From assembly GCF_054482595.1 (NCBI RefSeq), contig NZ_CM137008.1: a stretch of DNA of 64,000 bases; one strand, 5' to 3'. Below, piece by piece: positions 26,894 through 43,732 of the stretch; positions within the stretch are counted from its first letter, which is position 1, and each line of letters opens with the position of its first letter. The notes under the pieces were generated by a model, which saw nothing but the letters and a program-made list of their open reading frames with translations, was not told the DNA's origin and did no database searches. Made by a program: the position numbers and the translations under genes.

Positions 26894-27068
26894 GACGCCA
26901 CCGATAACCGTTATTTATCAGACCAAAGAAACTGGCATCTACTTTAATGCAGATGATTGTGTCAGGGTAATTTATGAACGGTTAAAACTGTGAAAAATCA
27001 GTTAGTGATAAGTAAAAACTATCGCTACGTGAACCGGGTCACACTTTTTACTGATGACGGGAAAGGTT

Positions 27069-35591: not shown

Positions 35592-37205
35592 TCAATGCTT
35601 CACAATATACATAGTCCGGCTGTACGCCACATCTTCCGGGTTATTAATGGGATAACCTTTCAGCCACGGCTTGATTAATCGTCCATTGGTATATTGATAA
35701 ATTGGTGCAATCGGTGCTTGCTCCATGAGGATTTTTTCTGCCGCGTTGTAATCGGCATTACGCGCTTTAACGGTATTTTCCGTCGATGCCTGGGCCAGAA
35801 CTTTGTCGTATGCCGGATTGTTAAAGCGTGAAATATTTCCTGAATGCGTTGACGTTAATAATGTCAGGAAAGTGGAGGGTTCATTATAATCCCCCACCCA
35901 TGAGGCGCGGATAACATCAAAATTGCCGGTGTTACGGCTATCGATATAGGTTTTCCATTCCTGATTTTGCAATTTAACATCTACGCCAAGGTTCTTTTTC
36001 CACATCGATGCTACAGCAATCGCAATTTTTTGATGGTTTTCTGAAGTGTTATACAAAAGCGTCAGCTTCAGCGGTTTTCGCGGACCATAACCAGCTGCGC
36101 TCAACAAAGTTTTTGCCTGCGCATTCAGTTCTTCCTGACTCATTTGTTCAAACGGCGAAGGTTCCGGCGTAAATCCGGCGGTAACATCTGGTGTAAAATG
36201 CCACGCTGGCTTTTCGCCCGTCCCTAATACTTTTTCGGTCATCAGGCGGCGATCTATCGTCATACTTAATGCCAGACGAACGCGCTGATCTGCCGTCGGC
36301 CCTTTTTGCGTGTTAAACGCATAATAATAGGTCCCGAGCTGCGGCGGCGTATAAACCTGCCCCGGAATATCCTTCAACAGCTTCTGATACATATTTTTCG
36401 GGAAGGATTCGGTGATATCAATATCCCCCGCGAGGTAACGCTTAGTGGCTGCGGATTCCTGATTAATTGGCAGGAAGGTCACTTTTTGCAGTACCGTTTT
36501 GGCGTTATCCCAATAATGGGTATTCGGTACCACGACCAGTTTTTCATTGACTACGCGTTCTTTAAGAACATAAGCGCCATTGCCGATCAGATTTCCGGGT
36601 TTCGTCCACTCTTTACCGCTTTCTACGTTGGCTTTTTGCACCGGGAAGAAGGCAAAGTTAGCGGTTAAATTCACAAACCACGGCAACGGTTTATCAAGCT
36701 GAATTTTCAAGGTATGGGCATCAACTGCGGTGACGCCAAGCTGGTCAGGCGTAGCTTTACCATCAATAATCGCCTGTGCGTTGTTGATTCCCGCCAGCGC
36801 GGCAAACCATGCAAATGGCGATAGCGTTTTCGGGTCCACCAGACGTTGCCAGCTGTAGACAAAATCTTGCGCCGTTACCGGTGTGCCATCCGCCCATTTT
36901 GCGTTATCGCGCAGGGTAAAAGTCCAGATACGGTTGTCATTACTTTTCCACTGAGTCGCAACGCCGGGGACAATCTCCCCTTTCTCGTTCTGATTCACCA
37001 GTCCTTCAAACAGATCGCGAATGACCTGAATCTCTGGCAGGCCCACGGCTTTAGCGGGATCCAGCGACGCAGGCTCATCTTTAATGTGGCGCACCAGCTC
37101 CTGCTTCTCTGCCAGTACTGTGCCGCTCGGAACTTCTGCAGCATACGAAAGAGAAATGCTGCTGACCAACAGCGCACAACACGTGACTGAAACAGAGTGC
37201 TTCAT
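35592..37205 (-). CDS. mppA: Periplasmic murein tripeptide-binding protein (OppA paralog)
   Basis: ORF track 35592..37226; start at MKHSVSVTCCALLVSSISLSYA gives 537 aa; SBP family 5. Confidence 0.9.
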   Translation of the reverse strand: MKHSVSVTCCALLVSSISLSYAAEVPSGTVLAEKQELVRHIKDEPASLDPAKAVGLPEIQVIRDLFEGLVNQNEKGEIVPGVATQWKSNDNRIWTFTLRDNAKWADGTPVTAQDFVYSWQRLVDPKTLSPFAWFAALAGINNAQAIIDGKATPDQLGVTAVDAHTLKIQLDKPLPWFVNLTANFAFFPVQKANVESGKEWTKPGNLIGNGAYVLKERVVNEKLVVVPNTHYWDNAKTVLQKVTFLPINQESAATKRYLAGDIDITESFPKNMYQKLLKDIPGQVYTPPQLGTYYYAFNTQKGPTADQRVRLALSMTIDRRLMTEKVLGTGEKPAWHFTPDVTAGFTPEPSPFEQMSQEELNAQAKTLLSAAGYGPRKPLKLTLLYNTSENHQKIAIAVASMWKKNLGVDVKLQNQEWKTYIDSRNTGNFDVIRASWVGDYNEPSTFLTLLTSTHSGNISRFNNPAYDKVLAQASTENTVKARNADYNAAEKILMEQAPIAPIYQYTNGRLIKPWLKGYPINNPEDVAYSRTMYIVKH

Positions 37206-37262
37206 AAGTTTCCCTCTAACCGACATTAAAATTGATGCGTAATTATTTGTTTCGCCTTAAAG

Positions 37263-37298
37263 AAATGCAAACAACTTCCATCAAAAAAGTGACACAGG
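37263..37298. repeat. 36-bp conserved motif, copy A (mppA upstream)
   Basis: aaATGCAAACAACTTCCatCAAAAAAGTGAcACAgGA; second copy at 41271..41307 differs at about 3 positions. Confidence 0.6.
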
Positions 37299-37541
37299 AA
37301 GCATAAAATGTTTTATGTATCAATATATTAAATCAGATTTAGTGTAAATAATCGACGCCAAAATGCGGTAAAGCACATAGAACACCGAACACTACATTCA
37401 GGCTTCGCACGTTCAAACCAGTTTTCGGTATCATAATCAGCATCTGTCGCCATTGTACGAAGAATAAAAAATAACCAAAACGTTGATAGGAACTGAGAAT
37501 ACGTTAAGAGAGAAATTAAATTAATGTATCAGCAAGTAGTG

Positions 37542-38441
37542 CTAAACAGCACCTTTATACTTCAGCCTATCTATAAATAATGAGAATGCCGAGCCAGCAT
37601 GTCGACGGTGTGGATAGTACAGGTGATAACCGGGTAAATCTGGTGTGAATTTATCCAAAACACGTATCAGTTTTTTTTCTTTAATAGCCCGCTCAACCTG
37701 ATCATAAGGTAGATACGCCAATCCATGCCCATCAATTGCAGCATCAATGATCAGGTCTATCGTATTCAGTAAAAGCTGACCTTCCATGCGAACACGAACT
37801 TCACGTCCACCGCGTATTAATCTCCAGCGATTTGCTGTACCCGATGTGGGAAGATACAAATTAATTGCCTGATGATCTATTAATTGTGACACTGACGTTG
37901 GAACACTTCGGCGAGAAAAATAATCCGGTGAGCCAACAATAGCCATTGGTATATCTGGCCCGATTCGAATGGCGATCATATCTTTATCCATCTCCCCACC
38001 CAGACGGACGCCTGCATCAAAACGTTCAGAAACGACATCGGTCAAACCATAATCAATGGTGAGCTGAATATCAATTTCAGGATGCGATTTCAGGAATGTG
38101 CGCATTGCTGGTAACAATATCGTTTTTGCTGCATGTTCTACAGTAGTAATACGTATTGTCCCGGATGGGCGGTTCTGCAGCTCGCTCAGGGATGCCAGGG
38201 CTGAATCTATGTCATGCAACATAGGGCCAAGAACAGACAAAAGATGCTCGCCCGCTTCAGTTGGAACAACGCTGCGCGTGGTTCGCGTCAGAAGCCGCAA
38301 TCCCAATCGTTCTTCTATACGACGCACTATCTGGCTTAAAGCTGACTGCGCCATGCTCAGGCGGGCTGCTGCACGAGTGAAGCTACGCTCCTCTGCAACG
38401 ACGACAAACGCCATCAGATCAGCGATTTCTTCACGCTTCAT
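37542..38441 (-). CDS. pgrR: LysR-family regulator PgrR
   Basis: 299 aa; N-terminal HTH; divergent from ycjY. Confidence 0.85.
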   Translation of the reverse strand: MKREEIADLMAFVVVAEERSFTRAAARLSMAQSALSQIVRRIEERLGLRLLTRTTRSVVPTEAGEHLLSVLGPMLHDIDSALASLSELQNRPSGTIRITTVEHAAKTILLPAMRTFLKSHPEIDIQLTIDYGLTDVVSERFDAGVRLGGEMDKDMIAIRIGPDIPMAIVGSPDYFSRRSVPTSVSQLIDHQAINLYLPTSGTANRWRLIRGGREVRVRMEGQLLLNTIDLIIDAAIDGHGLAYLPYDQVERAIKEKKLIRVLDKFTPDLPGYHLYYPHRRHAGSAFSLFIDRLKYKGAV

Positions 38442-38578
38442 TCAGTATCTCCATGCAATCTATTAATCATTTAAATGATAGGTCTAATCATGATTTTGGG
38501 TCTAATCAACTTAATGATCAATATCTATAGTGATATCACCAACCGTTAAAACGAACCGACAACTCCATGAGGAACGGA

Positions 38579-39499
38579 ATGATGAATAATAAAGTCAGCT
38601 TCACTAACAGCAATAATCCAACCATCTCTTTGTCTGCAGTGATCTATTTCCCTCCAAAATTTGATGAAACCCGTCAGTATCAGGCAATTGTGGTATCTCA
38701 CCCAGGTGGGGGCGTTAAAGAACAAACGGCCGGAACCTATGCCAAAAAACTGGCGGAAAAGGGATTTGTCACTATTGCTTATGACGCATCTTATCAAGGT
38801 GAAAGTGGCGGCGAGCCGCGTCAGTTAGAAAACCCATACATTCGTACTGAAGACATCAGTGCCGTGATTGATTACCTGACAACGCTTTCTTATGTCGACA
38901 ATACCCGAATTGGTGCGATGGGAATTTGTGCCGGTGCAGGATATACAGCCAATGCTGCAATTCAGGATCGCCGCATCAAGGCCATCGGTACCGTTAGTGC
39001 GGTCAATATTGGTTCGATGTTCCGTAATGGTTGGGAAAACAATGTGAAATCTATTGATGCCCTGCCATACGTTGAAGCGGGTTCAAACGCCCGAACCAGC
39101 GATATTAGCAGCGGAGAATATGCCGTTATGCCACTGGCACCAATGAAGGAGTCCGATGCGCCGAACGAAGAACTGCGTCAGGCCTGGGAGTATTACCACA
39201 CCCCTCGCGCGCAGTATCCAACAGCACCGGGTTACGCTACTTTGCGCAGCCTTAACCAGATTATTACCTATGATGCTTACCATATGGCGGAAGTGTACCT
39301 GACTCAGCCGATGCAGATTGTGGCGGGCAGCCAGGCAGGGAGCAAATGGATGAGTGACGACCTGTACGATCGGGCATCAAGCCAGGATAAACGCTATCAC
39401 ATTGTTGAAGGCGCAAACCATATGGATCTTTATGACGGCAAAGCCTATGTGGCTGAAGCAATTTCAGTATTAGCTCCGTTCTTTGAGGAAACTCTGTAA
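38579..39499 (+). CDS. ycjY: Alpha/beta hydrolase with Cys nucleophile motif (dienelactone-hydrolase-like)
   Basis: ORF track 38567..39499; start at MMNNK (GAGG 6 nt upstream) gives 306 aa; GICAG nucleophile-elbow motif. Confidence 0.85.
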   Translation: MMNNKVSFTNSNNPTISLSAVIYFPPKFDETRQYQAIVVSHPGGGVKEQTAGTYAKKLAEKGFVTIAYDASYQGESGGEPRQLENPYIRTEDISAVIDYLTTLSYVDNTRIGAMGICAGAGYTANAAIQDRRIKAIGTVSAVNIGSMFRNGWENNVKSIDALPYVEAGSNARTSDISSGEYAVMPLAPMKESDAPNEELRQAWEYYHTPRAQYPTAPGYATLRSLNQIITYDAYHMAEVYLTQPMQIVAGSQAGSKWMSDDLYDRASSQDKRYHIVEGANHMDLYDGKAYVAEAISVLAPFFEETL

Positions 39500-40431
39500 T
39501 GAAACATATTCAAATCCGCAATAGTGATATGGCCTGGCATATTGCTGCCAATATTCAGTTTCCACCAAATTTTGATGAGTCAAAACAGTATCCGGCGATT
39601 ATCAGCGTCCATCCTTTTGGCAGTTGTAAGGAGCAGACGTCTGGCAATATCTATGGCAAAGCATTGGCTGAAAAAGGCTATCTCGTTCTCGCTTATGACG
39701 CCAGTTTCCAGGGAGAATCTGGTGGGGAGCCTCGCTGGATAGAAGATCCGACACAGCGCGTAGAGGATATTAGCCGTGTTATCGATTATGCAGTAACTCT
39801 GCCATATGTTAATGCTGAACGTATTGGCGTGCTGGGAGTGTGTGGGGGTGGTGGCTATGCCATTAATGCCGCGCTGACAGAAAAACGAATTAAAGCAGTA
39901 GTGAGTATTACGGGTGTTAATATCGGGCGTCTTTTTCGGGAAGGTTTCAGCAATTACGATCCGATTGGCGCATTGAATGCAATGGCGTCGCAACGAACCA
40001 AAGAGGCTCGTGGTGGAGAATTACAGATCAACGAATTACTTCCCGCCAGCCTGGATGCAGCAAAATCCCATGGACTGACCGAACGCGATGTTTATGAAGC
40101 AACTGACTACTATAAAACACCACGCGGGCAACAACCGGGAGGTGCGACAAAAATGTTGTTCTCACATGCACAGAAAACGCTGGCCTGGGATGCCTTCGCA
40201 TTTACTGAAGTGTTACTGACTCAGCCGGTGATGGTAGTAGTTGGTGAAAAAGTCGGTGCCTTCGGTGCTTATCGTGATGGACTGGAAGTCTATGGCCGGG
40301 CGATGGTTTCGCAGGATCGTCAGTTAGTTTCATTACCCGATTTCTCACATTATGAACTGTATGACAAACCGGAAGCAGTTCAGGAGACGCTGGAAAAAGT
40401 TATTCCTTTTTTCAACACCCATCTGGGATAA
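39499..40431 (+). CDS. ymjD: Second alpha/beta hydrolase, paralog of ycjY (full-length counterpart of K-12 remnant ymjD)
   Basis: 310 aa; alignable with YcjY along its length (shared FPP.FDE..QY, LAYDAS.QGESGGEPR, VIDY); GVCGG motif; start overlaps ycjY stop. Confidence 0.7.
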   Translation: MKHIQIRNSDMAWHIAANIQFPPNFDESKQYPAIISVHPFGSCKEQTSGNIYGKALAEKGYLVLAYDASFQGESGGEPRWIEDPTQRVEDISRVIDYAVTLPYVNAERIGVLGVCGGGGYAINAALTEKRIKAVVSITGVNIGRLFREGFSNYDPIGALNAMASQRTKEARGGELQINELLPASLDAAKSHGLTERDVYEATDYYKTPRGQQPGGATKMLFSHAQKTLAWDAFAFTEVLLTQPVMVVVGEKVGAFGAYRDGLEVYGRAMVSQDRQLVSLPDFSHYELYDKPEAVQETLEKVIPFFNTHLG

Positions 40432-40448
40432 GTTTCATGAGAAATATT

Positions 40449-41087
40449 ATGAAAAATGTACTGATTCTTGGTGCTGGCGGTCAGATAGCCCGCCATGTGA
40501 TTAATCAACTGGCAGATAAACAAACCATTAAACAAACTTTATTTGCCCGTCAGCCAGCAAAAATCCACAAACCCTATCCAACTAATAGCAAGATTATTAT
40601 GGGAGATGTACTGAATCATGCAGCACTGAAGCAGGCCATGCAGGGACAGGACGTTGTGTATGCCAACCTTACGGGGGAAGATTTAGATATTCAGGCAAAT
40701 TCAGTGATCGCTGCGATGAAAGCCTGTGATGTTAAACGTCTGATCTTTGTTCTTTCCCTCGGTATTTATGATGAAGTTCCAGGAAAATTTGGCGAATGGA
40801 ATAATGCAGTTATTGGTGAGCCCCTAAAACCATTCCGCAGGGCTGCGGATGCAATTGAGGCTTCTGGACTGGAATATACAATTCTTCGCCCTGCCTGGCT
40901 GACTGATGAAGATATTATTGATTATGAGCTTACCTCACGCAATGAACCATTCAAAGGTACGATCGTATCACGTAAGAGTGTCGCAGCATTAATCACAGAT
41001 ATCATCGATAAACCTGAGAAACACATTGGTGATAATATAGGTATCAATCAACCCGTGACTGATGGTGACAAGCCATTATTCATTTAA
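40449..41087 (+). CDS. ymjC: NAD(P)-binding Rossmann-fold protein (NmrA/atypical SDR-like), intact
   Basis: ORF track 40437..41087; MKNVLILGAGGQIARH N-terminal dinucleotide-binding motif; 212 aa from this start. Confidence 0.7.
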   Translation: MKNVLILGAGGQIARHVINQLADKQTIKQTLFARQPAKIHKPYPTNSKIIMGDVLNHAALKQAMQGQDVVYANLTGEDLDIQANSVIAAMKACDVKRLIFVLSLGIYDEVPGKFGEWNNAVIGEPLKPFRRAADAIEASGLEYTILRPAWLTDEDIIDYELTSRNEPFKGTIVSRKSVAALITDIIDKPEKHIGDNIGINQPVTDGDKPLFI

Positions 41088-41270
41088 ATCAATTACATAG
41101 TTACCATCGTAATGTACTATGTGCAGTACGATTTATTAAACTTATTAAGGTGAACTGATCAATCCGATGCGATTAACATGTGTAGAACCAGTAAGAATAA
41201 AATACGCCATGTATATAACATTACGACTTACATCTAAGTCAGCATAATTCTAATATCTGCACATCAATAA

Positions 41271-41307
41271 AAATGCAAACAACTTCCGGCAAAAAAGTGA
41301 TACAAGA
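41271..41307. repeat. 36-bp conserved motif, copy B (mpaA upstream)
   Basis: aaATGCAAACAACTTCCggCAAAAAAGTGAtACAaGA; about 90-125 nt upstream of the mpaA start. Confidence 0.6.
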
Positions 41308-41395
41308 TCGATGACATAGCGTTGAAGAAAAGGATTTGATAATCCGCAAAATTTGCACAACACTGCCTGTAATACTTCCTGAACCAGAGACGATC

Positions 41396-42124
41396 ATGAC
41401 CGTAAACCGCCCACGCGCCGAACGCGGCGCATTTCCGCCCGGAACAGAACATTACGGACGTTCATTATTGGGCGCGCCGTTAATCTGGTTTCCGGCCACT
41501 GCAGCCAGTCGCGAAAGTGGTTTGATTCTGGCTGGCACTCACGGTGATGAAAACTCTTCGGTCGTCACGCTCTCCTGTGCTCTGCGGACTTTGACACCTT
41601 CTTTGCGCCGCCATCATGTGGTGCTGTGTGTGAATCCTGACGGCTGCCAGCTGGGGTTACGGGCCAATGCTAATGGTGTGGATTTAAACAGAAACTTTCC
41701 GGCGGCGAACTGGAAGGAAGGTGAAACGGTTTATCGCTGGAACAGCGCCGCTGAAGAACGTGATGTCGTATTACTGACAGGTGACAAACCTGGCTCCGAA
41801 CCTGAAACCCAGGCGCTGTGCCAGCTTATACACCGCATTCAACCTGCCTGGGTGGTCTCATTCCACGATCCACTGGCCTGTATTGAAGATCCCAGACACA
41901 GCGAATTAGGCGAATGGCTGGCCCAGGCGTTTGAATTGCCTCTGGTAACCAGCGTCGGTTATGAAACGCCTGGCTCTTTCGGCAGTTGGTGTGCAGATCT
42001 CAACTTGCATTGCATCACCGCAGAGTTTCCGCCCATCTCCTCCGACGAAGCCAGCGAAAAATATCTCTTTGCGATGGCAAACTTGCTGCGCTGGCATCCT
42101 AAAGATGCAATTCGCCCGTCGTGA
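41396..42124 (+). CDS. mpaA: Murein peptide amidase A (M14 gamma-D-Glu-mDAP amidase)
   Basis: ORF track 41336..42124; start at MTVNRPRAERG gives 242 aa; HGDE zinc-ligand motif. Confidence 0.85.
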   Translation: MTVNRPRAERGAFPPGTEHYGRSLLGAPLIWFPATAASRESGLILAGTHGDENSSVVTLSCALRTLTPSLRRHHVVLCVNPDGCQLGLRANANGVDLNRNFPAANWKEGETVYRWNSAAEERDVVLLTGDKPGSEPETQALCQLIHRIQPAWVVSFHDPLACIEDPRHSELGEWLAQAFELPLVTSVGYETPGSFGSWCADLNLHCITAEFPPISSDEASEKYLFAMANLLRWHPKDAIRPS

Positions 42125-43689: not shown

Positions 43690-43693
43690 GTTA

Positions 43694-43726
43694 ATATGCC
43701 TGATGGTGTTGCACCATCAGGCATAT
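43694..43726. terminator. Palindromic hairpin between convergent tpx and tyrR
   Basis: atatgcctgatggtg ttgc accatcaggcatat; no strong U-tract. Confidence 0.45.
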
Positions 43727-43732
43727 TCGCGC

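Follow-up and report, generated by a model that had tools for sequence, protein, structure and literature searches.

Genes and features of the mppA-mpaA locus

The window analysed here is a stretch of 64,000 nucleotides from contig NZ_CM137008.1 (RefSeq assembly GCF_054482595.1), and 7.7 kb of the locus described below is 100% identical to E. coli O157:H16 strain Santai. On the - strand lie mppA (35592-37205), which codes for the murein tripeptide binding protein, and pgrR, also named ycjZ (37542-38441), which codes for a LysR-type regulator. Divergent from pgrR and on the + strand is an operon (38579-41087) of three genes, namely, ycjY (38579-39499), a gene for a second alpha/beta hydrolase (39499-40431), and a gene for an NmrA-type SDR (40449-41087). 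Next come mpaA (41396-42124, + strand), which codes for the murein tripeptide amidase, ycjG on the - strand, and tpx on the + strand. Between tpx and the convergent tyrR there is an inverted repeat (43693-43727) whose 16-bp arms match perfectly around a loop of 3 nt, and this is likely a bidirectional terminator.

A 37-nt direct repeat upstream of mppA and mpaA

Two direct copies of a 37-nt sequence are found on the + strand, copy 1 at 37263-37299 and copy 2 at 41271-41307, with a spacing of 4,008 bp. Copy 1 lies 58 to 94 nt upstream of the ATG of mppA (37205, - strand) and copy 2 lies 89 to 125 nt upstream of the ATG of mpaA (41396, + strand). The first-pass annotation of this DNA had reported a near-identical non-coding repeat upstream of these two genes with about three mismatches between the copies. 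The repeat is confirmed over 37 nt, of which 33 are identical in the two copies, and the number of mismatches is four. The consensus of both copies is AAATGCAAACAACTTCC[AT/GG]CAAAAAAGTGA[C/T]ACA[G/A]GA, where the variant of copy 1 is given before that of copy 2; the first 17 nucleotides are all equal and the differences AT/GG, C/T, and G/A follow. When the window was shuffled no match to the motif was obtained in any shuffle. The repeat is sharply bounded. Homology past the 37 nt was sought by anchored gapped alignments and these were not significant against shuffles (p = 0.06-0.19 on the left and 0.13-0.65 on the right), nor was the in-register alignment of the flanks; to the right of the repeat at most about 10 extra bases are weakly similar (6/10).

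A genome-wide search for further copies had been set as a test, and a motif present at many unrelated loci would have pointed to a generic repeat. Over 5,426 complete genomes of E. coli the median count was two per genome, at these two sites, and therefore the objection that this is a generic repeat fails. A dispersed intergenic repeat of the REP, BIME, or ERIC type was likewise ruled out because many copies would be expected in each genome instead of two. The motif gave no relevant match in Rfam and no stable fold (z-scores 0.07 to 1.2), that is, no structured RNA was detected in it.

The mppA-mpaA region in related species

The neighbourhood of mpaA was compared using one genome per species, with the flanking genes placed by tblastn. 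In about 70 other species of Enterobacteriaceae mppA is the direct neighbour of mpaA and diverges from it, and these gave 72 distinct sequences of the uninterrupted region that span E. albertii, E. whittamii, three further non-coli Escherichia species, Citrobacter, Enterobacter, Lelliottia, Leclercia, Kluyvera, Pluralibacter, Kosakonia, Trabulsiella, and others. The gap between the two genes is typically 182-185 bp (range 138-233) and a single motif is present in every one of the 72 regions where the motif is still recognisable. The lengths add up exactly, because the 94 nt from the mppA ATG to the end of copy 1 plus the 125 nt from the start of copy 2 to the mpaA ATG, less 37 nt for one copy of the motif, come to 182. 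Alignment showed collinearity between the uninterrupted region and 37206-37262 joined to one motif and then to 41308-41395. Since the empty site has a single copy and the length sum is exact, the two copies bracket an insertion of 37300-41270. On the mppA side the ancestral junction is preserved at copy 1, and on the mpaA side it is preserved at copy 2.

The nearest relative that is free of the island, Escherichia L003, has flanking genes that are 95-97% identical and a left intergenic flank of the non-coli Escherichia type. Its single motif is exactly that of copy 2, which shows that copy 1 is the changed copy. Among the 75 non-coli loci that were examined the islet was found only in Escherichia sp. 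E1V33, where it is a secondary acquisition that is discussed below.

Content and origin of the inserted islet

The islet is 3,971 bp in length (37300-41270) and consists of a 242-bp left end, pgrR, ycjY, the second hydrolase gene, the SDR gene, and a right end of 183 bp. The core of the islet, which begins at the pgrR stop and ends shortly after that of the SDR gene, has 79% DNA identity to a LysR/hydrolase/hydrolase/SDR cassette on Klebsiella plasmids, and its identity to cassettes on plasmids of Rhizobium and Agrobacterium is about 69%. Homologues of PgrR with 87-89% identity occur beside the same hydrolase and SDR genes in C. koseri, Raoultella, and Klebsiella, and there the surroundings are unrelated to mppA and mpaA. 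The pgrR-ycjY islet is foreign and was acquired horizontally. The hydrolases that it encodes are like those of lactonase and esterase families and unlike murein enzymes. Outside E. coli the PgrR cassettes are located on plasmids or at loci unrelated to this one (loci L086-L095; plasmids H65-H69), and they usually have two additional genes, one for a short-chain dehydrogenase and one for an old-yellow-enzyme reductase. A role of the cassette in xenobiotic or ester metabolism, rather than in peptidoglycan recycling, is thereby suggested.

The annotation shows no gene for a recombinase, be it an integrase or a transposase, in or beside the islet, and an inverted-repeat test revealed no terminal inverted repeats (p = 0.82). 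Beyond E. coli the 242-bp and 183-bp ends had no match in 90 loci or in plasmids; within E. coli the variation in the 242-bp end is about 6%. PGAP has annotated a queH fragment (37352-37444, - strand) between copy 1 and pgrR; in RefSeq this fragment is a 31-codon 'epoxyqueuosine reductase QueH' pseudogene. A scan with NCBIfam gave no confirmation that this fragment is QueH and in a protein search it matched only E. coli and Shigella fragments. It is possible that the left end of the islet contains a queH relic.

The K-12-type islet has two deletions, which correspond to 39554-40442 and 40588-41265 of the window (L002 4554-4710), and it is therefore without the second hydrolase gene and most of the SDR gene. 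The right deletion stops 5 bp short of copy 2, at an AATA microhomology, and the ORF named 'ymjC' in K-12 (NC_000913.3 1390680-1390862) runs across copy 2. Since the end point of this deletion is so near to the edge of the motif, deletions into copy 2 may be selected against. In E. coli MDR_56 (L083 2524-3809) an IS421 is in place of copy 1, the entire islet, and the 5' end of mppA, and only copy 2 and mpaA are retained.

Putative promoter elements in the two copies

A scan for promoter consensus sequences gave TTTGCA-18/TTGCAT-17-AATAAT for mppA. The -35 hexamer TTGCAT (37265-37270, - strand) is inside copy 1, at the left end of the motif, whereas the -10 hexamer AATAAT (37242-37247, - strand) is outside the repeat; copy 1 also bears a T-tract that resembles an UP element. 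In K-12 a start of mppA was mapped at 1393195, 32 nt before the ATG, by SMRT-Cappable-seq (PMC6131387 supplementary file 4). This start corresponds to about 37236-37237 of the window and on the K-12 sequence it is 5-6 nt after AATAAT. It does not appear in the data of Kim et al. 2012, who gave mppA a start with 6 reads that is inside pgrR (PMC3415461). A second K-12 start of mppA, 1393117, is in the SMRT-Cappable-seq list (PMC6131387). It corresponds to about 37314-37315 (- strand), which is in the left end of the islet and upstream of copy 1, and in K-12 it has a -10-like hexamer, TATATT. Thus, the inserted DNA may have contributed a new promoter to mppA.

For mpaA two promoters were assigned. 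The distal promoter, P2, has an extended -10, TG-a-TACAAG (41298-41306, + strand), that is inside copy 2 at the right end of the motif. A transcription start site of mpaA at NC_000913.2 1388705(-) was reported with 20 reads (Kim et al. 2012 Table S1, PMC3415461), and the sequence printed for this start from -50 to +1 includes the whole motif at -42 to -6 (PMC3415461). The start corresponds to 41313 of the window, 7 nt past the TACAAG hexamer and 6 nt past copy 2. It is backed by these 20 reads in one dataset, the SMRT-Cappable-seq data giving only the proximal start of mpaA. The proximal promoter, P1, TTGATA-17-AACACT (41336-41364, + strand; start at 41371), is outside the repeat, and its start was mapped at 1390623 on the reverse strand, 25 nt before the ATG (PMC6131387). 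In copy 1 the -10 of the P2 type has decayed to TG-a-CACAGG (37290-37298, + strand), the hexamer being CAAAGG in K-12. Presumably this decay has silenced a P2-type promoter in copy 1 that would otherwise give antisense transcription into pgrR.

Conservation of these elements was counted in the 72 distinct uninterrupted intergenic regions. The mppA -10, AATAAT, is present in all 72. The mppA -35 is TTGCAT in 53 and TTGCAA in 13, together 66 of 72. For mpaA P1 the -10 hexamer AACACT is found in 69/72 and the -35, TTGATT/A, in 65/72. The TGAT of the P2 -10 is kept in about 90%, and the last five bases of the motif are not conserved. Inside the motif but outside the named hexamers the short blocks CTT and AAA are kept across genera. 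Around the P1 -10 the stretch TTTTGCACAACACTGC (41351-41366) is near-invariant in the 72 species, beyond what the hexamers alone would need, and an operator or leader element may be located here.

TTGCAT-17-AATAAT for mppA, with a spacer in the 16-18 bp range, the extended -10 TGaTACAAG for mpaA P2, and published starts at canonical distances from both are what is expected of sigma-70 promoters, and we infer that the named hexamers are those that RNA polymerase uses. The proposal in the first-pass annotation that the repeat is a shared cis-regulatory element holds to the extent that the motif is regulatory and tied to both murein tripeptide genes, with the mppA -35 and the mpaA P2 -10 inside it. 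It does not hold as the reason why there are two copies, because the copies come from an insertion into one divergent region.

Proposed duplication of an ancestral divergent promoter core

We propose, with a probability of about 80%, that the motif is the shared core of the ancestral divergent mppA/mpaA promoter and that it was duplicated when the pgrR-ycjY islet inserted in the E. coli lineage. In the ancestral state mppA and mpaA would have been neighbours with one 182-bp divergent control region that had the 37 bp at its centre. Towards mppA the motif would provide the -35 TTGCAT and a T-rich upstream region, and towards mpaA it would hold the entire core of P2, from -42 to -6, with the extended -10 TGaTACAAG. 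The acquired cassette of 3,971 bp, with its decayed ends, would then have inserted such that the 37 bp was duplicated exactly and each gene kept the complete copy that it needs. Copy 1 would serve mppA, its mpaA-type -10 having decayed, and copy 2 would serve mpaA, its mppA-type -35 being orphaned and with no -10 partner. Each copy thus appears to serve one gene now.

When the 4,008 bp of the spacing is subtracted, the ancestral starts of mppA (37236-37237) and of mpaA P2 (41313) are about 76 bp apart on opposite strands. A simple insertion between these starts would have disabled one of the promoters; the duplication spared both. We infer that selection favoured an insertion that left both promoters intact. 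The duplication of 37 bp may have arisen by a staggered break with fill-in or by a single crossover with a circle that carried a motif-like sequence.

Two known arrangements are comparable to this one. Direct repeats that flank islets, such as target duplications and attL/attR pairs, are also copies in the same orientation that bracket foreign DNA, have a single-copy empty site, and belong to cassettes found elsewhere on plasmids and at other loci. Target duplications of transposons are 2-14 bp, far shorter than the 37 bp here. The present case differs from the usual flanking repeats also in having no integrase, transposase, tRNA target, or terminal inverted repeats, and in that what was duplicated is probably the core of a working promoter. 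Divergent sigma-70 promoters arranged back to back are alike in having starts on opposite strands about 76 bp apart, conserved across genera, and in having the -35 of one promoter and the -35 to -10 region of the other inside the same 37 bp. Unlike in such promoters, in E. coli the core is split into two copies that are 4 kb apart, each apparently half-functional. A description of the duplication of an mppA/mpaA promoter core was not found in the searchable literature.

PgrR or another factor as a possible shared operator-binding protein

If a single factor, PgrR or another, bound both copies and co-regulated mppA and mpaA, this could maintain the identity of the copies, and we consider this unlikely. 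In its favour, the products of both genes act on murein tripeptide, and the conserved CTT and AAA blocks outside the hexamers would fit a bound factor. Also in its favour, no changes are found in the 17 nt of the orphaned left half of copy 2, which has stayed intact though it no longer serves mppA, whereas the right half of copy 1 has 4 changes in 20 nt. The left half of copy 2 may therefore have a further function, for example as the site of a factor, that goes beyond a reading in which only promoters matter. Insertion alone, however, fully accounts for the presence of two copies.

PgrR in particular was the candidate put forward earlier, and it has been reported to repress the ycjY-ymjDC-mpaA unit (PMC5934670). 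The motif, however, is conserved in genera and in Escherichia species that do not have pgrR at the locus, so that site and regulator do not occur together. Since the motif predates pgrR at this locus, binding by PgrR is unlikely. The published list of SELEX targets of PgrR has the ycjY/ycjZ spacer, and the upstream regions of mppA and mpaA, where the motif lies, are absent from it (PMC5934670). The imperfect dyad that had been given as ACTT-N10-AAGT is in fact ACTT-N9-AAGT; it has only 4 bp in each arm, and conservation is lacking in the right one, where the G (alignment position 84) is kept in about 20% of the 72 sequences. Operators of LysR-type regulators, among them the site of PgrR between pgrR and ycjY, have the T-N11-A pattern, and the motif resembles them in being A/T-rich, in having a short imperfect dyad, and in having a LysR gene nearby. 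It differs in that a conserved dyad of the T-N11-A type is not found in it, in that it exists without pgrR, and in that the SELEX target published for PgrR is the pgrR/ycjY spacer and not the copies of the motif.

Neither copy has a match to the CRP site TGTGA-N6-TCACA within two mismatches, which also counts against a shared operator. A CRP site from ETEC ChIP-seq that is labelled ycjZ/mppA was considered and rejected because it maps to position 27028 of the window, 10 kb off. At 27028-27043 there is a near-perfect site of the CRP type, CGTGAACCGGGTCACA, and the identical sequence is in the ETEC ChIP-seq table under ycjZ/mppA. Sites for sigma-54, FNR, and PurR in the motif were rejected by eye because either the spacing or the second half-sites did not fit.

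Movement of the islet

That the 37-mer is an attachment-like site, by which a circular form of the islet entered through site-specific or short-homology recombination and by which it can still move, with the two copies being attL and attR, is improbable in our estimation. Direct repeats that flank a foreign segment exactly are what such a site would leave behind, and all the differences between the copies are in the half of copy 1 that the element would supply. Against this, no recombinase gene is present in or beside the islet, and elsewhere the cassette is in unrelated sites that do not have the motif.

Two other insertions at this locus bear on the question. Escherichia sp. E1V33 (L005) is a sister of E. 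whittamii and has copies of the motif at 7431-7467 and 9877-9913. The islet between them is of the deleted K-12 type and is 97-98.5% identical to that of E. coli, whereas the flanks and flanking genes are 85-90% identical. Copy 1 of E1V33 is chimeric, its left half being native, GCAAATAACTTCCGG, and its right half being of the E. coli copy 1 type, GTGACACAGG. From the chimera and the contrast in identity it follows that the islet was transferred from E. coli with one crossover inside the motif, a point in favour of an attachment-like site. The other crossover, however, is about 50 bp past copy 2, so that the tract of E. coli type extends beyond the repeat as it does in ordinary homologous recombination, and this far crossover fits ordinary homologous recombination as well as it fits an attachment-like event.

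In Salmonella enterica subsp. arizonae (L024 6848-10000) and diarizonae (L025 6562-10000) a different insertion of 3.1-3.4 kb is in the mppA-mpaA spacer. From the translations, judged by eye, it codes for three proteins that resemble the cytolethal distending toxin proteins CdtA/B/C. The mppA promoter is replaced there, no duplication is seen, and the right junction is inside the sequence equivalent to the motif. This junction is in keeping with an attachment-like site but the lack of a duplication is not.

Two bolder ideas are rather improbable: that the 37-mer is an attachment-like site that lets a cassette with no integrase of its own move while regenerating both promoters, or that both copies are bound by a factor yet to be discovered that co-regulates mppA and mpaA. 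If the former were true, the islet would be mobile between Escherichia species and its attachment site would be the core of a bidirectional promoter. Finally, that the islet was there from the start and the 182-bp arrangement came from it by repeated deletion between the repeats is extremely improbable, because even though recombination between the 37-bp repeats would leave exactly one motif and L003 could in principle be a revertant, more than 15 genera would each have to have lost the islet independently and precisely, the cassette also occurs on plasmids and at other loci, and the left flank of L003 is of the non-coli Escherichia type.

Implications

With the motif read as a promoter core duplicated by insertion of the islet, the near-identical non-coding repeat, a puzzle in the bacterium that has been studied best, is accounted for as the scar of an insertion and not as the site of a new regulator. 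The analysis gives precise and testable promoter assignments for mppA and mpaA. It also means that mppA and mpaA started out as a divergent pair with a single control region, and that pgrR and ycjY, which were named and interpreted partly from their murein-recycling neighbours, belong to an acquired hydrolase/oxidoreductase cassette that landed in this control region. Caution is therefore called for in that neither the 'ycjY-ymjDC-mpaA operon' nor the role of PgrR in peptidoglycan recycling should be taken as an ancient design.
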